Both the position numbers and the translations under genes were made by a program. A DNA stretch of 25,644 bases from a virus (lineage: Duplodnaviria; Caudoviricetes): IMG/VR virus record IMGVR_UViG_3300037047_000281, positions 1 through 25,644 of that record; one strand, given 5' to 3'. Shown piece by piece: positions 1 to 12,525 of this stretch (positions within the stretch are counted from its first letter, which is position 1; each line of letters starts with the position of its first letter). The notes beneath the pieces were generated by a model. That model searched no databases and was not told where the DNA came from. It worked only from the letters and a program-made list of their open reading frames with translations.

Positions 1-306
1 ATGAAGCCGCATTACAAACTTCAAATTGACGGGCATATAGTCTTTCTGCCCAAATCAATTGAGCAAGTGCAGGCCGACTTCAAGGCGGCTGGCATCACGC
101 TCAGCGAATGGGCCCGGGCCAATGGTTTCCACCGCATGACCGTGGTGGACTTGTTGCGCGGCGCCCGCAAGGGCCTGCGCGGCGAAACCCACCGCTGCGC
201 CGTGGCCCTTGGCCGCAAAGAAGGCGTGGTGGTGGACGTGGCCAAGTTCAAACCCGCCCCGGCCCGCCAGGCCAGCAATGCTCCGCAAGCGAGGGCTGCC
301 GCATGA
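1..306 (+). CDS. Ner/Cro-like phage DNA-binding protein (BcepMu gp16-like family)
   Basis: Motif EQVQADFKAAGITLSEWARANGF...VVDLLRGARKGLRGETHRCAVALGRKEG; first gene of the early operon. Confidence 0.85.
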   Translation: MKPHYKLQIDGHIVFLPKSIEQVQADFKAAGITLSEWARANGFHRMTVVDLLRGARKGLRGETHRCAVALGRKEGVVVDVAKFKPAPARQASNAPQARAAA

Positions 307-677
307 AGGCCCCGCAATACGACGAGGCGGGCTTCAGGACAGACGCACCCATCATTGGCGGCGACTACGTGCCCACTGACGCAACGCTTAGCGACCATGA
401 TGCCCAGTACCTTGCGGCTGGCTTGATGGCCCCTTTTCGCCCGATCTCTTTTGATCCTGCGCTTGTAAAAAGACCTTCTGCAATTCTTCCGCCAGATGCG
501 TCATCAGACGTTGCGCAGGTGCCAGTCCATACAGATCAGCTGGCAGCGTATCTGTGCGCCGCCGCAGCATCGCTTGCAGATATTGCGCGTCAACTAGCCC
601 TTTGTGCTCAAGCGCTGCACCAAAAACCAGCAGGCTCTGCGCCAGGCCCTCAATCTGACCTTGGAGGTCCTCTGTGA
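303..677 (+). CDS. hypothetical protein (MKAPQYDEAGF...)
   Basis: ATG at 303 overlaps the previous stop (ATGA), suggesting translational coupling; overlapped by an antisense ORF. Confidence 0.45.
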   Translation: MKAPQYDEAGFRTDAPIIGGDYVPTDATLSDHDAQYLAAGLMAPFRPISFDPALVKRPSAILPPDASSDVAQVPVHTDQLAAYLCAAAASLADIARQLALCAQALHQKPAGSAPGPQSDLGGPL

Positions 678-696
678 TGTCTTCGTTGTGCCTCAT
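388..696 (-). CDS. small helical hypothetical protein on the opposite strand (MRHNEDITEDLQGQIEGLAQSLL...)
   Basis: On the - strand CTGGAGACGAC precedes the ATG (GGAG Shine-Dalgarno at normal spacing); amphipathic, protein-like sequence. Confidence 0.6.
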   Translation of the reverse strand: MRHNEDITEDLQGQIEGLAQSLLVFGAALEHKGLVDAQYLQAMLRRRTDTLPADLYGLAPAQRLMTHLAEELQKVFLQAQDQKRSGEKGPSSQPQGTGHHGR

Positions 697-816
697 GTCG
701 TCTCCAGTTGTGTTGGTTGCGATGCCCACACTGTGCGCCCAAAAACCCCAAAAACGCATTTCCAGCCCGGCCATTTGTTTCGCAGCCGCTTTCAACCCCA
801 CGACGAGGGCCTTCCA

Positions 817-1293
817 ATGATCCGCCGCAACTGGAAACGGGTGCACCCGAACAGCCTGGTCGATGCCTTGCGCCTGTGCAAGGAATACGCCCAAGAGAAA
901 TCAAACCTGTCTATCGAGCGCATTGCCGACCGCATGGGTGTCAGCCATGACAGCCTGTACAAGTGGTTGGCCACGGGGCGCTTGCCCGCCATCCTGATCC
1001 CGGCGTTTGAACACGCCTGCGGTTGCCACTTTGCCAGCTGCTGGCTGGCCGCCAGCGCGGGCAAGCTGGCCATTGACATGCCCACCGGTCGCACCGCCAC
1101 GCAGACCGACATGGTGGAGCTCAACAGCTGCTTTGGCGCCGCCCTGCAGTTGCTGTCCGACTTTTATGCCGCGCCTGGCAAGGCCGACGCGGCCGCGACC
1201 CTGGCCGCACTCACCAGCCACCTGCAGCAAGTGGCCTGGCACCACGCCAACGTGGGCCAGCACAGCAACCCTGAACTGGACTTCTGCGCATGA
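817..1293 (+). CDS. phage regulatory HTH protein (CII-like), conserved in B3-type transposable phages
   Basis: MIRRNWKRVHPNSLVDALRLCKEYA...SIERIADRMGVSHDSLYKWLATGRLP (HTH); GAGGG upstream of ATG 817. Confidence 0.75.
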   Translation: MIRRNWKRVHPNSLVDALRLCKEYAQEKSNLSIERIADRMGVSHDSLYKWLATGRLPAILIPAFEHACGCHFASCWLAASAGKLAIDMPTGRTATQTDMVELNSCFGAALQLLSDFYAAPGKADAAATLAALTSHLQQVAWHHANVGQHSNPELDFCA

Positions 1294-1526
1294 ACCAACA
1301 AGACATTCACTACGCCCTGGACAAGCAGGTGCCCGACATGAAAGCCCGGGGCTTCACCATTGGCACCAGTTACGGCCAGATTGACATGCCTCCAGGCTGG
1401 ATGGCTGACCGCATGGCCGAGCACCTGGTGCGCGCCCTGCAGTGCGAGCTGCTGTACCTGGAACGCGCCCGCCACCACGCGGGGGCATGCACACCGCAGC
1501 CGGAGGGCGACAGCCATGGCCACTGA
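1290..1526 (+). CDS. hypothetical protein
   Basis: ATGA overlap with upstream gene; phage-like codon usage. Confidence 0.65.
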   Translation: MNQQDIHYALDKQVPDMKARGFTIGTSYGQIDMPPGWMADRMAEHLVRALQCELLYLERARHHAGACTPQPEGDSHGH

Positions 1527-1839
1527 AGCCGCAGCGCCCAAACTCAATGACGCCATCCGCAAAACCTGCGAGCTGTTTCGCCTGCTGGCCGGGCACGAGC
1601 TGCTGGGCCTGGCCCCGGGCGAGATCGCCAAGGGGCTGAACGTGGGCGCACCGTGGGTCAGCGTCAACCTGCCCGCCATTGCCGCCGAGACCGGCTTTGT
1701 CGAGCGCGTGGACGGCACCAACCGTTGGCGGTTGGGCGTGCCGCTGGTGCGCATTGCTTTTTCTGTCAGCACCCAGTACAGCACCGCCGTCAAGAAGCTT
1801 GACGAAGTAGGCAAGCGCTACGCCGTACCCATCAACTAA
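1516..1839 (+). CDS. IclR-like winged-helix DNA-binding protein
   Basis: LFRLLAGHELLGLAPGEIAKGLNV...GFVERVDGTNRWRLG; GGAGGG upstream of ATG 1516. Confidence 0.8.
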   Translation: MATEAAAPKLNDAIRKTCELFRLLAGHELLGLAPGEIAKGLNVGAPWVSVNLPAIAAETGFVERVDGTNRWRLGVPLVRIAFSVSTQYSTAVKKLDEVGKRYAVPIN

Positions 1840-1867
1840 CCCCTCAACCCACAGAAAGACAAGCCCC

Positions 1868-2776
1868 ATGGCCAACAAACCTACCCCCGCCGCTCAAGTC
1901 ATTGATATCCCCATGAACCAGGTCGTGCTTGACCAGGAGCGCAGCGCCCTCACCAGTCTGGCACTCATCACCGCCCAACAAGACAGCGCCGTGCGCGCCG
2001 TGGCCCTGCAAATGGGCTATGCACTGCCCGCCGACTGCACCGACCCCGACCTGATCCAGCGCGACATCAGCGCCAACATGCGCCGCAGCGTGGAAGCTTG
2101 CCTGGAAGTGGGCAAGGGCTTGCGTGTGCTGAAAGAGGCTTGTGTCCATGGCAGCTTTATGGCCCGGCTGGATGTGCTGAATATTGATGATGGGGTCGCC
2201 CGCAAGTTCATGCACGCAGCGGCCAAGTTTTCAAATCGGTCGTCAACGACCGTTTTAAAGGCGATCAACTCCCAGACCAAGCTTTTTGAAATGCTGGTCC
2301 TGGATGACGATCAAATGGAAGAACTCGAACTCACCGGCCAGACCGGCGAACTCGCCCTCGACGACGTGGCCACCATGTCGGTCAAGGAATTGCGCAAGGC
2401 GGTGCGTGAGGCCAAGGCAGAAAAAGAAGCCACAGAAAAGCTGCTGGAAAGCAAAAACAAGCAGATCGACAAACTGAGCCGCCACATTGCCAAGGCCACG
2501 CCCGACACCGTGCTGCTGGAGCTGCAGAAAGAAACCACCGCCTTCACCAACGATGCGCTGGGCTGCATTCAGGGCCAGCTGCGCCAGGCCTTCATTGCCC
2601 TCAAGAACCATGGCGACGGCAGCGCCGACCACAGCCTGTTCATGGCCGGGCTGCTGGGCCAGGTGCAGGCCGAGCTGGCCGCGCTGCGCGATGAATTCAA
2701 TTTGCCCGACATCAGCAACGCCCGAGACCAGGAGCTTGCCGCCGAGGTGGCGCAATGGGCCCCTGTGAGCCACTAA
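1868..2776 (+). CDS. DUF3102-like phage protein
   Basis: MRRSVEACLEVGKGLRVLKEACVHGSF...ARKFMHAAAKF and LDDVATMSVKELRKAVRE motifs; usual position before the transposase. Confidence 0.75.
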   Translation: MANKPTPAAQVIDIPMNQVVLDQERSALTSLALITAQQDSAVRAVALQMGYALPADCTDPDLIQRDISANMRRSVEACLEVGKGLRVLKEACVHGSFMARLDVLNIDDGVARKFMHAAAKFSNRSSTTVLKAINSQTKLFEMLVLDDDQMEELELTGQTGELALDDVATMSVKELRKAVREAKAEKEATEKLLESKNKQIDKLSRHIAKATPDTVLLELQKETTAFTNDALGCIQGQLRQAFIALKNHGDGSADHSLFMAGLLGQVQAELAALRDEFNLPDISNARDQELAAEVAQWAPVSH

Positions 2777-2790
2777 GCCATACCAACACC

Positions 2791-4569
2791 ATGGCCCTGA
2801 ACCCCGCCACCGTCGCGCGCCTGGTGCAGCTGGCGCAAGCCATTGCCAGCGCGCCACGCGGCAGCAAGCAGGCGCTGTACGCAGCGGCCTGTGCCGAGCT
2901 GGGGGTCAGCCTGCCCACCGTCCACCGTTACCTGGAACAAGTCACCGTGAAACCCACCCGCAAACAACGCTGTGACGCCGGCGCCGTGGAGCTGTGCCGC
3001 GACGACGCCCGCGCCATCAGTGCCCTGCTCACCACCAGCGCCCGCAAAACCGGCAAGCGCCTCATGAGCATTGGCCAGGCCGTCGACATGCTGCTGGCCA
3101 ATGGCGAGATCAAACCCTTTGTGCTGGACGACGCAACCGGCGAGCTCACCCGCCTGAGCGACAGTGCCATTGCCCGCGCGCTGCGCGCCTACGGCATGCA
3201 CCCCGACCAGCTCAACCGGCCCACCCCGGCGGTGGAGCTCAAAAGCCTGCACCCCAACCATGTGTGGCAGATCGACGCCAGCATTTGCGTGCTGTATTAC
3301 CTGACCCCCAGCAGCGCCAAAGAGGCCGGCCTGCAGGTGATGGCGCGCGACCAGTTTTACAAAAACAAGCCCGCCAACCTCAAGCGCATCGAAGCCGACC
3401 GGGTGTGGAGCTATGAGGTGACCGACCACAACAGTGGCGCCATCTTTGTGCACTATGTGATGGGCGCCGAAAGCGGCACCAATCTGGCCGAAAGCTTTAT
3501 TGCCGCCATCCAGAAACGCCCCAACGACCCGCTGCACGGCGTGCCATTTATTCTGATGATGGACATGGGCAGCGCCAACACCAGCGGCCTTTTTGGCAAC
3601 CTGGCGCGCCGCCTGCAGGTGCAGTTGATCGCCCACGCCCCCGGCAACGCCCGCGCCACCGGCCAGGTGGAAAAGGCCCGCGACATCATTGAGCGCAGCT
3701 TTGAGAGCAGCCTGCGCCTGCAGCCAGTGGCCGACCTGGCCGAGCTGAACTCCTGCGCCCAGCGCTGGGCCTGCTGGTTCAACGGCAACAAGGTGCACAC
3801 GCGCCACGGCAAAACCCGTTTTGAGCAGTGGCTCACCATTGCCCCCGAGCAGTTGCGCATTGCGCCACCGGCCCCGGTGTGCTTTGAGCTGCTGAGCGAA
3901 AAGGTGGAAACCCGCAAGGTCAATGACAACCTGACCGTGTCATTCAAGAGCGGCACCTATTGCGTCAAAACCGTGCCGGGCGTGATGGTGGGCGAGAAGC
4001 TGCAGATCACCGTCAACCCCTACGTGGCCAACGCCGCCCAGGTGCTGCTGAAAGACGCCGACGGGCACGAGGTGCTGCACAGCATACCGCTGCTGGAAAA
4101 AGACGATGCCGGCTTCCTGGAGCGCGCCAACGTCATCGGCGAAGACTTCGCCCGCCCGGCCGACACGCTGCTGGACACCAACCGCAAAGAGGTGCAGCGC
4201 TTTGCCTATGACGCCGCCACCGATGAAGAGGCCGAGGCCAAGCGCCGCGCCGGTGCCATCCCGCTGGGCAGCCGCATCGACCCCTACAAGGTGATTGCGC
4301 AGGCGCCCGAGCGCAGCTTTATGCCGCGCCGTGGCAATGACCTGGTGCCCGCTGTCACCACCAGCAGCACACCGGTACCGGTGCGCACCTTGAGCCAGTT
4401 CGAAGCCGCCCAGGCGCTGGCCAAGCTGGGCCTGCCTTTGAATGGCGAACTCATCACCACGCTGAAAAGCCTGTACGTTGAGGGCGTGCCCGAGGATGAA
4501 CTGCCCGCCCTGTTTGACCGCCTGACGGTGCGCAAGAGCTTGCGTGTGGTGAACGGGGGTGCGGTATGA
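2791..4569 (+). CDS. transposase A (DDE integrase family)
   Basis: N-terminal HTH; catalytic motifs HPNHVWQIDAS, MMDMGSAN and NARATGQVEK; likely start ATG 2791. Confidence 0.93.
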   Translation: MALNPATVARLVQLAQAIASAPRGSKQALYAAACAELGVSLPTVHRYLEQVTVKPTRKQRCDAGAVELCRDDARAISALLTTSARKTGKRLMSIGQAVDMLLANGEIKPFVLDDATGELTRLSDSAIARALRAYGMHPDQLNRPTPAVELKSLHPNHVWQIDASICVLYYLTPSSAKEAGLQVMARDQFYKNKPANLKRIEADRVWSYEVTDHNSGAIFVHYVMGAESGTNLAESFIAAIQKRPNDPLHGVPFILMMDMGSANTSGLFGNLARRLQVQLIAHAPGNARATGQVEKARDIIERSFESSLRLQPVADLAELNSCAQRWACWFNGNKVHTRHGKTRFEQWLTIAPEQLRIAPPAPVCFELLSEKVETRKVNDNLTVSFKSGTYCVKTVPGVMVGEKLQITVNPYVANAAQVLLKDADGHEVLHSIPLLEKDDAGFLERANVIGEDFARPADTLLDTNRKEVQRFAYDAATDEEAEAKRRAGAIPLGSRIDPYKVIAQAPERSFMPRRGNDLVPAVTTSSTPVPVRTLSQFEAAQALAKLGLPLNGELITTLKSLYVEGVPEDELPALFDRLTVRKSLRVVNGGAV

Positions 4570-4570
4570 T
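4540..4570 (+). promoter_or_regulatory. putative sigma70 promoter of the C4-like cassette, overlapping the transposase stop
   Basis: TTGCGT (4540-4545), 19 nt spacer, TATGAT (4565-4570); spacing is suboptimal. Confidence 0.4.
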
Positions 4571-4597
4571 TCGCTCGCTGTGCAAAAAAAGCGCAGT

Positions 4598-4613
4598 CGG
4601 GATTGGCGTCCCG
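4598..4613 (+). promoter_or_regulatory. upstream antisense target hairpin (a1/b1-like)
   Basis: CGGGA-TTGGCG-TCCCG stem-loop; TTGGCGT is complementary to ACGCCAA (4739-4745) in the RNA. Confidence 0.75.
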
Positions 4614-4684
4614 TTGCACCCCTACGACGAAAGCCGTAGGACTCCCGCAGTCACTGCGGCTTCGTTGTCTGTGCCCCCAGTTTT

Positions 4685-4761
4685 GGTGGCTCGGATGGGG
4701 GGCCGTAAGGCCGCCGTTTCCCGCAAGGGGTGCACGGTACGCCAACCCTGTTCGAGCTACC
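4685..4761 (+). ncRNA. C4/CI-family antisense RNA
   Basis: GGTGGCTCGGATGGGG pairs with CCCTGTTCGAGCTACC (with G-U pairs); internal hairpins GGCC-GTAA-GGCC and CCC-GCAA-GGG have GNRA loops; single-stranded TACGCCAA; overlapping frames show ash-family motifs KSAVGIGVP and YANPVRAT. Confidence 0.85.
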
Positions 4762-4786
4762 TCCCCGGATTGGCGTCTAAGGAGGT
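4759..4786 (+). promoter_or_regulatory. downstream antisense target (a2/b2-like)
   Basis: Second GGATTGGCGTC (4767-4777) inside an ACCTCC...GGAGGT stem. Confidence 0.7.
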
Positions 4787-4820
4787 GGTTTTTGCAAACC
4801 GCACCCCTTGGAGGCCATTC

Positions 4821-5087
4821 ATGGCACGTAATCCCTCGACCCCGGCTATTGCCGTCACTGACGTTGTTGACGCGCTCGACCACCTGTCTGATCACTTTCT
4901 CGCCTTTGAGGCCATCGAGCAATTGATCACCCCGCAAAAGGCCAATTGCAGAGAAGACCTGGCCCACGTAGACCGCCCCGCGCTGGGCGTCCTGCTCACC
5001 ATGCTCAACACCAGCATGCGCAACCAGATCACCGCAGCCCGCGCAGCGGCTGAGGTGGCCCACCAAATGAATCGGGGTGAAGCATGA
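4821..5087 (+). CDS. small protein downstream of the C4-like RNA (icd-position gene); may extend upstream to 4566 as an ash-like ORF
   Basis: GGAGG at 4810-4814 before ATG 4821; stop overlaps the next start (ATGA). Confidence 0.7.
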   Translation: MARNPSTPAIAVTDVVDALDHLSDHFLAFEAIEQLITPQKANCREDLAHVDRPALGVLLTMLNTSMRNQITAARAAAEVAHQMNRGEA

Positions 5088-6652
5088 GCCAAACAAACCA
5101 CAGCTACATGCCAATGGCCATTGATGGCCTCACGGGAACGGTGCGCTACACCTGCCCGCCGGGCGCTGAACCGTTGGTTGATTTGCGTTCCTTGTTTGAG
5201 GCGCTACGGATGAAGTGGCTGACATGGGAGGCACGGATGCTTGTCATTTGCAGCCAAAGGGGTTGGCAGCCACACATTGCAAAGGACTTTCAAGGCCGCA
5301 AAACACAGTTGCTTGCAGCATCCAGCGTGGCGCACCTGTTGTCAGCTCTCGCGGTGTCGCCGCTGGCCTGCCGCCATGCCACCAAAAGCAAATTGACGGC
5401 CTGTGCGCATATGTGGGACCGCAATTGGGAGAGGCTGGCAATTGGTACCGCAAGAGGGCGCGTTATGGGGCCGTTAACGCATGGAGAAGCCCAAGGGCAT
5501 ACCTGCGTACTCAAAAGCGTTGCGGAGGCCTCAAACGGCATTACGCCAACAACCGAGTTTGAGGTCTTGAAACTCACCGCAGACGGGCGCACACCCACCC
5601 AGATCGCCAAAGAACTAGGCCTGAACAGATCCACAGTCAGCCTGCTCGCCCGTGGCAAATACAAATTCGCCAAAAAGTTGGCCTCAGGGATATCGAACAC
5701 CCCTGAGGCCGTTTCCTCAACCCCAACCGTAACCGAAGAAAAGGAAGATCCGATGTTATTGCAAAACCAAGCCCTCAACCCCGAGGCACGCCAGCACTTC
5801 AAGCTGCCGCGCAACCCGTTTGTGGACGACGTGCAGAGCCCCGACGATGTTTTTCAGACGCCCAGCGTGCGTTATGTGCGCGCCGCGCTGCTCGACTGCG
5901 CCCAGCACCACGGCTTTGTGGCGGTGGTGGGTGAGAGCGGCGCGGGCAAGAGCACGCTGGCCGAAGACCTGGAGGAGCGCATCAAGGCCGACAAGCGCGA
6001 GGTGCTGGTGGTGCGCCCCTATGTGCTGGCCATGGAGGCCAACGACCAAAAGGGCAAAACCCTTAAAAGCGGCGCCATTGCCGAGGCCATTGCCTTTGCG
6101 CTCGACCCCCATATCAGCCTGCGCAGCAGCCCGCAGGCGCGTTTTCAGCAGGTGCATGACTTGCTCAAGGCCAGCCGCCGCGCCGGCCGACGCCACCTGC
6201 TGTTGATCGAAGAGGCCCATTGCCTGCCGCTGGCCACGCTCAAGCACCTCAAGCGCTTTCTGGAGTTGAAAGACGGCATGCAGCGTCTGATTGGTGTGGC
6301 CCTGATTGGCCAGCCCGAGCTGCGCGAGCGCCTGGGTAGCCAGAACGCCGAGGTGCGCGAGGTGGCGCAGCGCTGCGAGATTGTGGCGCTGGACCCGCTG
6401 GACGGCGAGCTTGAAGCCTACCTGCAGCACAAGTTTGCCCGCTTCGACCTCAAGCTCTCTGACGTGTTTGCGCCGGACGCCTTTGACGCCATGCGCGCCC
6501 GCCTCATCCACACGCCACGCGGTGGCCGCCCGGCCGATGCGCGCAGCCTGTGTTACCCGCTGGTGGTGAACAACCTGGTGTGCCGCGCCATGAACGCTGC
6601 CGCCGCCGCCCACTGGCCGCAGGTGGACGCCCAGGTGGTGAAGGGGTGCTGA
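5084..6652 (+). CDS. transposition ATPase B (ExeA-like AAA+) with N-terminal antirepressor-like domain and HTH
   Basis: Walker A GESGAGKST, Walker B LLLIEEAH; HTH GRTPTQIAKELGLNRSTVSLLARG; N-terminal ~120 aa resembles P22 Ant N-terminal domain; possible internal start ATG 5753. Confidence 0.88.
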   Translation: MSQTNHSYMPMAIDGLTGTVRYTCPPGAEPLVDLRSLFEALRMKWLTWEARMLVICSQRGWQPHIAKDFQGRKTQLLAASSVAHLLSALAVSPLACRHATKSKLTACAHMWDRNWERLAIGTARGRVMGPLTHGEAQGHTCVLKSVAEASNGITPTTEFEVLKLTADGRTPTQIAKELGLNRSTVSLLARGKYKFAKKLASGISNTPEAVSSTPTVTEEKEDPMLLQNQALNPEARQHFKLPRNPFVDDVQSPDDVFQTPSVRYVRAALLDCAQHHGFVAVVGESGAGKSTLAEDLEERIKADKREVLVVRPYVLAMEANDQKGKTLKSGAIAEAIAFALDPHISLRSSPQARFQQVHDLLKASRRAGRRHLLLIEEAHCLPLATLKHLKRFLELKDGMQRLIGVALIGQPELRERLGSQNAEVREVAQRCEIVALDPLDGELEAYLQHKFARFDLKLSDVFAPDAFDAMRARLIHTPRGGRPADARSLCYPLVVNNLVCRAMNAAAAAHWPQVDAQVVKGC

Positions 6653-6656
6653 GCAC

Positions 6657-6806
6657 ATGAAAACCTACCGCCTCATGGTGACTCAGCCCGACGGCTCGCG
6701 TTGCCTCTTTTGCGGCCTGTATGCCGACGGCTTTGACGCCGTGATCCAGACCATGACCACTTACCCCGATGCCAAGCGCATCAGCGCCCGGAGGATTGCC
6801 GCATGA
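6657..6806 (+). CDS. 49-aa hypothetical protein (MKTYRLMVTQPDGSRCLFCGLYADGFDAV...ISARRIAA), not in the ORF track
   Basis: Fills the gap exactly between B and the next gene, ending in an ATGA overlap. Confidence 0.7.
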   Translation: MKTYRLMVTQPDGSRCLFCGLYADGFDAVIQTMTTYPDAKRISARRIAA

Positions 6807-7138
6807 GCCGAGCTTGTAAAGACCTGGCCGTGTGCCAGCGCATTGACTGCCCGGACTGCGACGCCTTTGAGTGCGAGCTGCCTTGCAGTCCCGAGCCCGC
6901 AGATGGCGAACTCTACCCCTGGCCGCGCTACCCGTTTGCGCCTGGCGTGATCCAGGGCGCCAAAGACAGCCAGTGGAACGGCCTGGGTGAGTCTGACGCC
7001 TACCCGCTGACCACCGGTGAGGGCCTGAAAGTGCTGCTGCTGGTGTTGCTGGTGGCCGTGTTGGGCAGTGTGCTGGGCGGCTTTTTGGCCGGGTACTTGC
7101 CCTGGCCCGCCTGGCTGACCGTGGGGTTGCCAGGATGA
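6803..7138 (+). CDS. hypothetical membrane protein with Cys-rich N-terminus
   Basis: C-terminal hydrophobic helix VLLLVLLVAVLGSVLGGFLAGYL; coupled overlaps on both sides. Confidence 0.7.
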   Translation: MSRACKDLAVCQRIDCPDCDAFECELPCSPEPADGELYPWPRYPFAPGVIQGAKDSQWNGLGESDAYPLTTGEGLKVLLLVLLVAVLGSVLGGFLAGYLPWPAWLTVGLPG

Positions 7139-7674
7139 CGCTCGACCTCAGTTGCCCCGTGTGCGGCGCCGGCCTGGCGCTGGACCACCTGTTTGTCGAC
7201 GCCGACAACCGCGCCGCCGTGGCCCGGCTCATTGCCGTGGCGCTGCCCCTGGGCGGGCCGCTGCTGCAGTACACCCGGCTGTTTGCCCCGCCCAAGACCA
7301 GCCTGACCCAGCGCAAACAGGTGCGCATCATCCTGCAGCTGCTGCCCGACCTGGAGCGCGGCGCCATCACCCACCGGGGCCGCGACTGGGCGGTGCCGCT
7401 GAGCGTGTGGGCGCAGGGCATCGACCAGATGCTGCAGGCGCGTGACGCCGGCCGCCTGGAGCTGCCCATGAAAGGCCACGGCTACCTGTACGCCATCTTG
7501 ACCAGCCTGGCCGACAAGGTGGAAGCCGTGGCCGAGGTGCGCACCGAGGCCGCCAAGCGCCACCCGGTGAGCGTGCCCGTGGCCGGGCAGGGCGCGGCCC
7601 AGCCAGCCGCCATGCCCGAGGCCATACGCCAGCAAATTGCCAGCCTCAAAAACCTTGGAGTCAAAGCCCCATGA
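7135..7674 (+). CDS. conserved Mu-like phage hypothetical protein with CPVC motif
   Basis: LSCPVCG...YTRLFAPPK...LELPMKGHGYLYAIL. Confidence 0.8.
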   Translation: MTLDLSCPVCGAGLALDHLFVDADNRAAVARLIAVALPLGGPLLQYTRLFAPPKTSLTQRKQVRIILQLLPDLERGAITHRGRDWAVPLSVWAQGIDQMLQARDAGRLELPMKGHGYLYAILTSLADKVEAVAEVRTEAAKRHPVSVPVAGQGAAQPAAMPEAIRQQIASLKNLGVKAP

Positions 7675-8138
7675 AAGAGATCGAGAAAACCTGCCACCAG
7701 CAAAGCGATGTCAACCTGGCGCTGCTCAAGCTGATCAAGCAATACGGCCAGGCCTGCTACACCCTGCTGTTCGACCAGTTTGGCAACCTGGAGCGCAACA
7801 CCACTGCTGCCCACACGCGCTTCAGTAAAAAGCTGCAATACCTGTGCTACACCGACCAGCTGCAGCGCACCGGCATGGGCAAGAAGGCGGTCTACACGCT
7901 GGGCCACCTGGCATTCAAACCCCAGCCCGGCACCGCCCTGGCGGCCAGCCGTCATTGCGAGCGAAGCGCGGCAATCCATGACCCCATCGACCCCGCCGAC
8001 TCTTACCTGGTAAGCAAGGCCCTGCCCAACCAGTACGACGTGATGGCCGCCCCGGAATTTACGCCGCCACCCGCCACGGTGCTGCGCCCCGGCGCCCTGG
8101 ACTACCAGCGCTACGCCAGCCATGGCGACCGCTGCTGA
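7671..8138 (+). CDS. hypothetical protein carrying an in-frame palindromic repeat
   Basis: ATGA overlap; C-terminal LRPGALDYQRYASHG motif. Confidence 0.75.
   Translation: MKEIEKTCHQQSDVNLALLKLIKQYGQACYTLLFDQFGNLERNTTAAHTRFSKKLQYLCYTDQLQRTGMGKKAVYTLGHLAFKPQPGTALAASRHCERSAAIHDPIDPADSYLVSKALPNQYDVMAAPEFTPPPATVLRPGALDYQRYASHGDRC
7949..7979 (+). repeat. CGTC-tagged REP-like palindromic repeat, copy 1 (intragenic)
   Basis: CCGTCATTGCGAGCGAAGCGCGGCAATCCAT. Confidence 0.85.
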
Positions 8139-8139
8139 C

Positions 8140-8170
8140 CCGTCATTGCGAGCGTAGCGCGGCAATCCAT
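8140..8170 (+). repeat. CGTC-tagged REP-like palindromic repeat, copy 2 (intergenic)
   Basis: CCGTCATTGCGAGCGTAGCGCGGCAATCCAT; 30/31 identical to copy 1. Confidence 0.85.
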
Positions 8171-8198
8171 ATCCCTTGATTTTTAACCTGGAATAACC

Positions 8199-8840
8199 AT
8201 GACACAACAAACCACCCCCCCCAGCTACAGCCGCAGCACCACGCCCGGCTACTGGCTGGACGCCAATGGCAACCTGGTGCCCGAGGCCAAGGTCAAGCAG
8301 ATCGACCAGGTGCGCAACCAGATGGTGTACGACCTGTGTCGCATGGCCGAGACCGAGAGCGCGGCGCTGCGCGCCTTCAAGCTGGCCGCCATGACCGAAG
8401 TCGCCGCCTTTGTCGCCATGAGCCTGGACCAGTACGGCGTGCGCACCGGCGGCGAAAAAGGCAACGTCACGCTGATCAGCTACGACGGCGTGTACAAGCT
8501 GGTGCGCCAGATGCAGGACAAGATCGTGTTTGGCGAGCAGCTCATGGCCGCCAAGGCGCTGATCGACGAATGCGTGCACATTTGGGCGCAGGGCGCCAAT
8601 GACAACATCAAGGCCCTGGTCAACCACGCTTTCCAGACCGACAAGGAAGGCAAGATCAACACCGGCCGCGTCTTGAGCCTGCGCCGCCTGGACATCCAGG
8701 ACGCCAAGTGGCAGGCCGCCATGCAGGCGATCGCCGACAGCATGCAGACTGCCAGTACCAAGCCCTACATCCGGTTCTACAAGCGCTCTGATGCCACGGG
8801 TGAGTACTTGCCGATCAATCTTGACGTGGCGGCGATATGA
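8199..8840 (+). CDS. DUF3164 family phage protein
   Basis: PGYWLDANGNLVPE...GGEKGNVTLISYDG...AKALIDEC...AFQTDKEGKIN...KPYIRFYKR. Confidence 0.85.
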   Translation: MTQQTTPPSYSRSTTPGYWLDANGNLVPEAKVKQIDQVRNQMVYDLCRMAETESAALRAFKLAAMTEVAAFVAMSLDQYGVRTGGEKGNVTLISYDGVYKLVRQMQDKIVFGEQLMAAKALIDECVHIWAQGANDNIKALVNHAFQTDKEGKINTGRVLSLRRLDIQDAKWQAAMQAIADSMQTASTKPYIRFYKRSDATGEYLPINLDVAAI

Positions 8841-9076
8841 CCAGCACGGCCCAAATCAACTTGGCCAACCTGCACGAGTCCGTAGGATTCAAAAAGGCCG
8901 TCCCGCCTGAGCCAAAAATTTACGCGATGTCCGCAATTGCTGTTACTTCGTTTTTGCGCGGCGAACTGACCCTGCACAGAGTCAACCTGCGCTGCCGCAC
9001 CCACAAATTCAAAGTTCGGATGGAAACCGTCTGTGACTCCCACAGTTTTCAGTACACGAATCGGGGCGACAAATGA
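8837..9076 (+). CDS. hypothetical protein
   Basis: ATGA overlaps at both ends; lower GC than neighbours. Confidence 0.5.
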   Translation: MTSTAQINLANLHESVGFKKAVPPEPKIYAMSAIAVTSFLRGELTLHRVNLRCRTHKFKVRMETVCDSHSFQYTNRGDK

Positions 9077-10902: not shown

Positions 10903-11283
10903 ATGGCCTTGAATGACCCCAATGATGGCCGCATGGCCGAACGCCGCCACGAGCTGTATGCCGACCTGATGGCGTTGGTGCAGCGCCAGCTGGGCGAGTA
11001 TGGTGTGGGCGGCAACGAGGCGGCGTTGATTGCCAGTGACCTGGCTGACCGCCTGGCCGACCACTGGGGCGGGCAAAACATCACCTTCCCCAAGGAATAC
11101 CGGCGCAAGCTGTCGCGCCTGGAGGCCGAGATTTACCAGGCGCACCACGGGCACAATCTGGCCGCGTTGGCGCAGCGTTACGATATCAGTGAGCGCGGCC
11201 TGCGCAAGATGATTGACCGTGTGACCAAGCGCATCCGCGCGGGCAACCAGGGCGGCTTGTTTGATCCGCCCAGTGCGGCCTGA
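10903..11283 (+). CDS. mor: Mor/C family transcription activator
   Basis: HWGGQNITFPK...IYQAHHGHNLAALAQRYDISERGLRKMI; AGGAGG upstream. Confidence 0.92.
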   Translation: MALNDPNDGRMAERRHELYADLMALVQRQLGEYGVGGNEAALIASDLADRLADHWGGQNITFPKEYRRKLSRLEAEIYQAHHGHNLAALAQRYDISERGLRKMIDRVTKRIRAGNQGGLFDPPSAA

Positions 11284-11319
11284 TTTGTTTTAACTTGGCA
11301 GCCCCCGGCGTTTATCCGG

Positions 11320-11376
11320 TGCAAGTTCTGCCCTCGTTCCAATTACGCCGCCCCCGCCACCGCAGATCATTGCGGC
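11320..11376 (+). promoter_or_regulatory. putative Mor/C-dependent late promoter, probably giving a leaderless mRNA
   Basis: Short intergenic gap with an AT-containing box (GTTCCAATTAC), a GC-rich spacer and a -10-like GATCATT 5 nt before ATG 11377; no Shine-Dalgarno. Confidence 0.4.
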
Positions 11377-12525
11377 ATGGCACTCAAAACCCCCATCACA
11401 CTGGCATCAGTAGCCGCAGCCGTTGCGGTTGCAGCCTGCACCTACACGCTGGCTGGCGCCACCGAGCTTGACGGTGGCCTGGTGCTGCTGCAGCTCACCC
11501 CGGCGGGTGAGTTTTTGCCCAGTGACGGCCGGGTGCTTGACTCCCCCGCATGGCGCATTGATGCAGCCAGCGCCCAGGCGGTGATTGCCCGTTTCCGCGC
11601 GCTCATCCAGCCCCCGGTGATCGACTACGAGCACCAGACCCTCAACAAGGAAAAGAACGGCCAGCCCGCCCCGGCCGCTGGCTGGATGCGCGACTTGCGC
11701 TGGATCGACGGCAAGGGCCTGTACGCCGTGACCGAGCTCACAGCGCGTGCCAAGGGCTTTATTGATGCCAAAGAGTACCTGTACATCAGCCCGGTGTTTG
11801 AGTACGCCAAAGACACCGGTACCGTGTTGGCCATTCACATGGCTGCACTGACCAACACGCCTGCCTTGCACGGCATGGACCCGCTCACCCTGCGCGCCGC
11901 TGCAACGGCCGCTTTTTTGATCCCCACCACCCACCAGGAGCCCAACTTGAATCCTTTGCTTAAAGCTTTGCTGGCCGCCCTCGGCCTGCCAGACACCACG
12001 ACCGAAACCGCCGCCTGCGCTGCTCTCACTGCAGTCGGCTCTATTCCCGCGCTGCAAGCGCAGGCCACGGCCGCCCGCCAGGCGCTGGCTTTGCCGGCCG
12101 ACGCCACTGGTGAGGCGGTCATGGCCGCTTGCACCAGTTTGCGCACCGCTGCTGCGCCAGACCCGGCCAAGTTTGTGCCCATCAACGTGGTTGACGAGCT
12201 GCGCGCCAGCCTGGCCGTGTTGTCGTCGCGCCAGGTGCAGGGTGAGATTGATGCCGCTGTGGGCAGTGCCCTGGCAGATGGCCGCTTGTTGCCCGCGCAA
12301 GAGGTGTGGGCGCGCGACCTGGGCAAAACCAACATGGCCGCGCTGACGGCCTACCTGGCCACCGCACAACCCATTGCCGCGCTGGCCGGTACCCAGACCA
12401 ATGGACTGCCGCCGGCACGCACCGGCACGGCCGCTGCTGGCCAGCTCACACCAGAGCAGTTGGCCGTGTGTTCGGCCATGGGCCTGACTGCCGAGCAGTT
12501 TGCCAGCGCGCAGGCTGCTGCCTGA
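11377..12525 (+). CDS. Mu-like prohead protease I (with nested scaffold Z)
   Basis: VIDYEHQT, PAPAAGW, EYLYISPVF and AALTNTPAL motifs; C-terminal LTPEQLAVCSAMGLTAEQF. Confidence 0.93.
   Translation: MALKTPITLASVAAAVAVAACTYTLAGATELDGGLVLLQLTPAGEFLPSDGRVLDSPAWRIDAASAQAVIARFRALIQPPVIDYEHQTLNKEKNGQPAPAAGWMRDLRWIDGKGLYAVTELTARAKGFIDAKEYLYISPVFEYAKDTGTVLAIHMAALTNTPALHGMDPLTLRAAATAAFLIPTTHQEPNLNPLLKALLAALGLPDTTTETAACAALTAVGSIPALQAQATAARQALALPADATGEAVMAACTSLRTAAAPDPAKFVPINVVDELRASLAVLSSRQVQGEIDAAVGSALADGRLLPAQEVWARDLGKTNMAALTAYLATAQPIAALAGTQTNGLPPARTGTAAAGQLTPEQLAVCSAMGLTAEQFASAQAAA
11947..12525 (+). CDS. nested in-frame scaffolding protein (Mu gpZ-like)
   Basis: CAGGAG (11935-11940) 6 nt before an in-frame TTG at 11947 (LNPLLKALLAALGL). 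Confidence 0.6.
   Translation: MNPLLKALLAALGLPDTTTETAACAALTAVGSIPALQAQATAARQALALPADATGEAVMAACTSLRTAAAPDPAKFVPINVVDELRASLAVLSSRQVQGEIDAAVGSALADGRLLPAQEVWARDLGKTNMAALTAYLATAQPIAALAGTQTNGLPPARTGTAAAGQLTPEQLAVCSAMGLTAEQFASAQAAA

Follow-up and report, generated by a model that had tools for sequence, protein, structure and literature searches.

What does an RNA switch known from phage immunity regions do when it lies between the transposase gene A and the ATPase gene B of a transposable phage? The question is raised by a 25.6-kb virus record (IMGVR_UViG_3300037047_000281; 25,644 nucleotides, here called the window), in which family scans find, in this order, a BcepMu gp16-family gene, a CII-like gene, A, B, DUF3164, gemA, mor and Mu-like head genes. 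With homologues of A and B, gemA, mor and Mu-like head genes all present, its gene content identifies the phage as a B3/BcepMu-type transposable phage. B3-like (Beetrevirus) and BcepMu-type phages share the gene order gp16/ner-like, A, B, DUF3164, gemA, mor and, as described in the accessible text of PMC9936078, also share accessory genes in the early operon; the same text describes a single repressor-controlled operon, pE, that carries A, B, gemA and mor in B3-like Fc02. The B3/BcepMu-type transposase of the window (2755–4569, 604 aa; phrog_310, E 3e-101; features are on the plus strand unless stated) is ~49% identical to A of the Pseudomonas B3-like phages JD18, JBD25 and Fc02, and the repressor and pE lie beyond the ends of the record. 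The host may be related to Rhodoferax sp. U2-2l, the source of the nearest named homologue (82%) of the 88-aa ORF described below. In run X1, which may represent the source sample, a single contig spans 3800–5421 with zero differences and a second contig, from run X2, short and of low depth, crosses 4488–4638 with 4 differences, which argues that the cassette junction is not an assembly artefact. One sequencing run is labelled RNA-Seq, but its contigs are probably of DNA and bear no information on expression. Elsewhere in the window, family scans place, around 10903–11377, the head protease gene I directly after mor, with no lysis, terminase or portal block seen between them, and a small unlisted ORF (ATG at 6658, ~49 codons, 6658–6805) lies between B and a 111-aa gene, whose start its stop overlaps. 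A candidate Mor-type activator site in the dyad at 4532–4545 was dropped, given that the sequence is coding-constrained and is not kept in L016 or L001.

A first-pass annotation of this DNA had proposed a complete C4/CI-like switch between A and B, and both the covariance model and the covariation found in 46 cassettes (below) support it. The Rfam C4 model (RF01695) matches 4679–4767 over its full length (model positions 1–87) with a score of 55.7 bits (E 2e-08) that exceeds the gathering cut-off of 45; the cloverleaf itself (4685–4761) has GUAA and GCAA loops and holds the antisense element ACGCCAA at 4739–4745. Only two other Rfam matches occur in the window at E up to 1, isrK at 4577–4666 (34 bits, cut-off 50) and c4-a1b1 at 4564–4617 (19.8 bits, cut-off 46.7), so that the covariance-model check confirms the C4 RNA but leaves the leader matches below cut-off, although both sit at the expected upstream position with the expected fold. 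From these matches, the folds and a terminator-like site we delimit a putative seqA/IsrK-like leader (4577–4666), consisting of a 7-bp hairpin with an A7 loop (4577–4597), a target hairpin (4598–4613) and a terminator-like stem (4624–4664; terminator-like site predicted at 4645–4659), the U-tract behind which is weaker in the window than in many relatives. The upstream target TTGGCGT (4603–4609) pairs 7/7 with the antisense element, as does a second TTGGCGT (4770–4776) in the loop of a downstream target hairpin of the seqC/a2-like type (4757–4788). A search of both window strands places the longer string GGATTGGCGTC at 4600 and 4767 only. The 5' arm of the downstream target hairpin overlaps the closing stem of C4, and the two folds are mutually exclusive. 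The fold of 4560–4830 has a z of -6.69, with 0/200 shuffles equally stable, and in the minimum-energy fold of the unprocessed leader the upstream target is paired in cis with the antisense element. The A7 hairpin, the TTGGCG target, the cloverleaf with two GNRA loops, ACGCCAA and the second target that the first-pass annotation had listed were all found where it had placed them. By covariance model and predicted fold, the element is a complete C4/CI-type cassette of a known RNA family, placed between A and B; the suggestion that it is an undescribed system falls, given that the RNA belongs to an Rfam family and that such cassettes are frequent among prophages of the host group.

The homologous cassettes allow the pairing scheme to be followed through sequence change. 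The alignment comprises 46 full-length cassettes, and its counts describe complete cassettes only; left out were duplicates (L089, L184, L190, L216, L234), cut copies (L188, L194, L248), the loci L235, L237 and L246, and loci in which the second target was judged by eye to be missing (L167, L222, L225, L230, L232, L242). L222, L225, L230 and L232 present a C4 subtype with an upstream target and no downstream target in the loop of the following hairpin. The alignment shows a match between the five variable bases of the antisense element and the upstream target in 45/46 cassettes, the downstream target in 43/46 and both in 42/46, over 15 sequence variants, whereas 10,000 permutations gave a both-target match in 4.7 cassettes on average and 13 at most. 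Upstream target and antisense element are paired in 98.4% of 321 cells, with 78 compensatory cells, and downstream target and antisense element in 97.8%, with 76 compensatory cells, in each case unreached by 500 shuffles. The C4 cloverleaf is paired in 92% of cells, with two-sided change in 17/29 pairs (0/500 shuffles as high), and the downstream target hairpin in 93%, with two-sided change in 8/11 pairs. For the targets, the cloverleaf and the downstream hairpin, percent paired and covariation score exceed all 500 shuffles and all slid controls; both kinds of control leave the kinship of the cassettes in, and the slid controls are nonetheless much lower. At one C4 pair the window has U-A and the other 45 cassettes have G-C, and this private compensatory change argues that the window copy is not decaying. 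Judged by the three-way covariation of the antisense element and two targets, the cassette is under selection, and since both cis targets covary with the antisense element, cis control appears to be under selection too.

Ribosomes coming from A may carry translation on through the switch. The A stop overlaps, as ATGA, the start of an eta-like read-through ORF (4566–5087, 173 aa; ORF173) that is stop-free across the switch, and nested in the same frame lies an 88-aa ORF in the kil/icd position (4821–5087; ORF88) with a Shine-Dalgarno GGAGG at 4810–4814. This layout, in which an ORF coupled to the gene before it runs through the switch without a stop and encloses a shorter ORF in its frame, is of the P4 eta/kil type. 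According to the available part of PMC10111431, translation of P4 eta, which is coupled to the gene before it, keeps transcription from terminating; the CI RNA comes from a promoter within eta, and kil is the nested form. ORF173 has no Pfam match at E 10, and neither ORF falls into a Pfam (including Phage_ASH), PHROG or NCBIfam family or shows Kil or Icd membership. For ORF88, the ESM Atlas gave nothing at or above 0.9 and an alignment used against metagenome contigs gave 292 pattern matches with 0 confirmed; it has 9 homologues besides its own record (64–84% identity, Rhodoferax sp. U2-2l among them), which in the loci read always stand behind a cassette.

Across the 46 cassettes, the read-through frame is open in 31, compared with 9 and 11 for the other forward frames and 10, 14 and 4 for the reverse frames, counts that are not independent since the cassettes are related and only ~4–5 separate junction events are represented. 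Stops interrupt the frame in the other 15/46. Among Mu-like cassettes behind an early gene, 9/12 have a start -4 to +5 nt from the stop of that gene with the frame running past both targets, and 3/12 (L242, L201 and L095) lack the coupled read-through; together with the 15 interrupted frames, these show that an override would not be universal. The two phages with the cassette between A and B, the window and L091, are coupled by different overlaps, ATGA and TAATG respectively, and the ORF has 173 aa in both. Among the 80 best of 452 confirmed IMG/VR transposase relatives, B was also seen in 78, and 43 of these 78 have ATGA at the A stop, which suggests that the A/B overlap is ancestral and that the cassette took over an old B start. 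An eta-like coupled ORF across the switch would mean that the switch is overridden whenever A is translated and that B stays tied to A. The first-pass annotation had seen in the switch a way of uncoupling transposase expression from replicative transposition; an A stop that overlaps an ORF reading through both targets and the RNA, with override as the P4 precedent, argues the opposite. As a separate observation, the non-Mu cassettes L172, L177, L178 and L182 follow a ~900-aa ORF, and the coupled start is kept in two of them.

The same overlap bears on where the RNA could come from. The -10 box TATGAT that the first-pass annotation had read over the A stop is present as a hexamer at 4565–4570, which contains the stop and would mark a putative internal promoter like P4 PLE, but its ATGA is the ancestral overlap, only its last T is cassette-specific and the -35 box is absent. 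A TAnnnT occupies the same alignment columns in 33/46 cassettes and is found at this place in 0/78 cassette-free relatives (from the best 80 of 452). At spacers of 16–18, the best -35 match in the window is 1/6, compared with 2/6 in L091 and 4–5/6 in L042, L090, L092, L095 and L195, and a promoter scan of window positions 1–9000 returned 0 sites. With the -35 box missing in both A–B phages, constitutive C4 synthesis in the lysogen is doubtful.

What lies downstream of the switch also differs from the first description, which had put it between transposase A and ATPase B. The cassette does lie between A and the B core, but B is not directly behind it: the 88-aa ORF and ~220 extra codons fused to B intervene. 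The first ~196 residues of "B" belong to a family of 191–334-aa proteins with an N-terminal domain and an HTH; the extension has 13 phmmer homologues, 12 of which are proteins of that size, most with a weak HTH match. This candidate antirepressor-N/Bro-like domain plus HTH (5084–5670) is fused in frame to the front of B, and its start overlaps the ORF88 stop (ATGA). Its structural model has a pLDDT of 82, with an antirepressor ant N-terminal domain protein as the best viral fold match (E 4.7e-05), and the ESM Atlas, used for leads only, gave Bro-N at 0.91 on 14% of members and P22_AR_N at 0.89. The domain has no Pfam match, Foldseek against the PDB gave nothing at E 0.001 (best a Dachshund domain, E 0.08), pairwise BLAST against the P22_AR_N of L042 was not significant (E 0.093) and a word-index search found no homologue of the extension. 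In relatives, the third gene of the module carries P22_AR_N, KilA-N (twice), Rha or Bro-N, in 5/5 tested loci downstream of B; the third gene of the L091 module has no family. On the strength of the fold prediction, the third gene of the module, of putative antirepressor type, has fused to B in the window. This domain, the ORF173 read-through and the missing -35 box had all escaped the first-pass annotation.

The B ATPase core (5753–6652; phrog_296, E 5e-58; AAA_22) has a Shine-Dalgarno and ATG of its own. A Shine-Dalgarno 4-mer precedes the B-core ATG in 75/76 relatives (from the best 80 of 452) versus 32/865 internal A ATGs, and B is possibly made in two forms, given a core with its own ribosome-binding site in nearly all relatives. 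Since the core can start for itself at 5753, B could be gated by termination only; the predicted products are a fusion of 522 aa and, from the ATG at 5753, a B of 299 aa. From the A stop to the B-core ATG, the distance is -11 to 541 nt in 76 relatives (from the best 80 of 452; L068 was left out and L076 had no ATG) versus 1184 nt in the window. Over relatives L001–L080, the stretch from A to the B core is a length-plastic slot that may or may not keep the frame. In the window, the linker leading into the core contains a 14-bp hairpin with a preceding A run (5680–5710) that is terminator-like on the minus strand, and a similar motif occurs in 27/76 relatives (from the best 80 of 452); the hairpin might terminate antisense transcription or mark the internal start of B.

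A survey of A–B regions in relatives, which the first-pass annotation had named as a check, came out both ways: none of the 78 relatives with A and B (from the best 80 of 452) has a cassette there, but motif and ORF88 searches found one further phage, L091, that does. Its junction is near-identical and its heptamer the same, so that the A–B insertion is probably one old event; cassettes of the window and L091 are identical in 195/265 aligned columns and their ORF88 copies at 64–65%. Across the 80 whole relative records, 4 carry C4 elsewhere. In other B3/Mu-like phages the cassette stands behind DUF3164 (L042, L088/L089, L090, L092), in L095 a gene further on, behind a 175-aa gene in L195 and behind gemA in L201; it follows mor or a mor-like gene in L219, L234/L198 and L242 and precedes DUF3102 or A in L024, L241 and L065/L066. 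Most Mu-like cassettes are downstream of B and head an antirepressor-type gene, which suggests that this gene is the natural target of the cassette. Of 48 pattern loci, 27 are cassettes, many in loci without a match to window genes; C4 is present in 11/144 genomes of the genus Rhodoferax, and at least 6 other C4 loci, read by eye, lack a second target. With several early-operon sites and further copies in loci that do not match window genes, the cassette has the distribution of a mobile accessory module.

Other searches returned no further A–B case. Cassette-plus-junction DNA matched 12 of 401 Rhodoferax-family genomes, none of them between A and B; blastn of the window and L042 cassettes against 50,697 GenBank phages gave no match; the leader-hairpin pattern found 71 metagenome loci, none with a cassette by nhmmer; and the junction pattern found 3 loci in viral contigs, L091 again and 2 chance matches. 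In L024 (2159–2466), L241 (1444–1738, minus strand) and the similar L236 (1351–1642), a cassette stands at the operon front leading to DUF3102, and in L024 the operon behind it also leads to A and B. Front cassettes of the L024/L241 type have their own -10 box and stops in the read-through frame, and such a switch could gate the whole transposition operon without a ribosome override; for the idea of RNA gating, they are a better case than the window. The cassettes of L091 and L201 are further followed, as second and third gene, by cysteine-rich ORFs that are related to each other (167 aa at 802–1305 in L091, 189 aa at 2151–2720 in L201), and the one in L091 has no Pfam match.

Comparison with known systems shows which parts are borrowed. 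The P4 immunity region (PLE, seqA, CI RNA, seqC, eta/kil) shares the upstream target in a putative leader, the CI/C4 RNA, the downstream target and a long upstream-coupled ORF that crosses the switch and encloses a shorter one in frame, as far as the accessible parts of PMC10111431 and PMC4825925 describe it. The window differs from P4 in that its host is a transposable phage, the coupled upstream gene is a transposase, the internal promoter is without a -35 box, ORF173 and ORF88 fall outside Pfam including Phage_ASH, and the B ATPase rather than P4 replication genes follows. In P1, the downstream C4 target lies on the Shine-Dalgarno/ribosome-binding site, whereas in the window the downstream target (4770–4776) is 34 nt ahead of the Shine-Dalgarno (4810–4814). 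The opening of the ribosome site was tried as evidence and rejected: with the downstream target blocked it went from 15.7 to 8.0 kcal/mol in the window, and over 21 cassettes (5 mis-parsed) there was no consistent direction. The P1/P7 immI region (c4-icd-ant; RF01695, RF03163) shares the C4 match and, with a candidate antirepressor-type gene in third place, the order of RNA, small ORF and antirepressor gene, going by the available text of PMC8201110, whereas in the window the antirepressor-like domain, predicted from a fold match, is fused to B. Gifsy-1 isrK-orf45-anrP resembles the window in its IsrK leader with terminator, putative in the window, and in a read-through ORF coupled to an antirepressor gene (PMC4825925, in part), which in the window is a candidate domain, and N15 immA has the same likeness as cited in the accessible portion of PMC3632133; their hosts, however, are lambdoid or linear-plasmid phages, and isrK is below cut-off in the window. 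IsrK and C4 are stated to be homologues of seqA and CI in the available sections of PMC3632133 and PMC4825925.

The reading that we favour, and which we consider modestly probable, is that the C4 cassette is a translation-sensing attenuator that guards the repressed prophage and ties B to the translation of A. In the repressed prophage, transcripts that carry no ribosomes, started by leak or at a predicted weak internal promoter, would give rise to the ~77-nt C4 RNA; C4/CI RNA is processed by RNase P. By pairing with both TTGGCGT targets, this RNA would end transcription before orf88, the antirepressor-domain/B fusion, gemA and mor, and in the lysogen it might perhaps also stop incoming elements that have this heptamer. 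Once the phage grows lytically, ribosomes that reach the end of A would re-initiate at the overlapping ATG and translate ORF173 through the switch, which would prevent termination, and B would thus be made together with A. For override, termination, processing and promoter activity alike, we infer from P4. Like its counterparts in P1, P4 and N15, the cassette could provide a second layer of immunity, based on RNA.

The position in the early operon also admits a delay: C4 RNA could accumulate after infection and end early-operon transcripts behind A, yielding transposase but little B or Mor and favouring lysogeny. No transcript from pE can arrive at B, gemA or mor without passing the switch, re-initiation at an overlapping start is, as far as known, never complete, and C4, now that the -35 box is gone, may derive chiefly from pE transcription, a source that would give delayed negative feedback; moreover, the A–B position has persisted while cassette and ORF88 diverged between the window and L091. 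We nevertheless think such a delay unlikely, since the coupled read-through ORF, a known override, is kept in both A–B phages by different overlaps, since 0/78 relatives (from the best 80 of 452) need a gate of this kind, and since most Mu-like cassettes are downstream of B, where separating A from B is impossible. A wider version, in which transposable phages have repeatedly captured the C4 switch as a ribosome-sensing checkpoint, the B fusion and Mor are made only when transposase translation outruns C4, and the timer sets the A:B ratio and so one-time integration versus replicative transposition, also strikes us as doubtful.

If the 15 specificity variants among 46 cassettes reflect an arms race, the RNA may instead act mainly in trans, silencing incoming phages or satellites with the same heptamer, with the A–B site incidental. 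The window variant is common to 7/46 cassettes, including L206, L212, L217 and L245, which have no match to the Mu-like genes of the window, and the idea has been raised for lambdoid prophages against P4-like satellites in the accessible part of PMC3632133. Covariation of both cis targets with the antisense element indicates, however, that cis control is selected as well, and without a -35 box the promoter would yield little RNA in the lysogen; a mainly trans role seems to us quite improbable. That the cassette is a passenger, a recent accessory insertion whose promoter was disrupted when it arrived and which the phage tolerates since ribosomes read through it, would fit its rarity at the A–B site, the lost -35 box and a slot before the B core that varies anyway (-11 to 541 nt in the 76 relatives), but is very improbable given the intact 7/7 pairing at both targets, the private compensatory pair and the same junction in the diverged phage L091.

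The cassette itself is a known RNA switch, unusual in its position and new in the type of phage that hosts it. C4 is an established Rfam family (PMC2864571, in its available text; its supplement on c4 may list hosts), and in the literature searched, mostly without subscription papers, we found nothing on C4/CI RNA in Mu-like or transposable phages; the accessible parts of PMC4378225 and PMC12540744 make no mention of it there. C4/CI RNA immunity has been studied in P1, P7, P4 and N15; the finding adds transposable phages to its range, and in these the cassette behaves as a mobile accessory module with several early-operon sites and many specificity variants. At the A–B site, an ancestral A/B start overlap would have been taken over as the override signal, with an antirepressor-type domain left on B. 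If the switch only guards the prophage, this is the ordinary reuse of a known device; if it shifts the A:B ratio, it would open a simple, testable way into the question of how Mu-like phages keep integration apart from replicative transposition.
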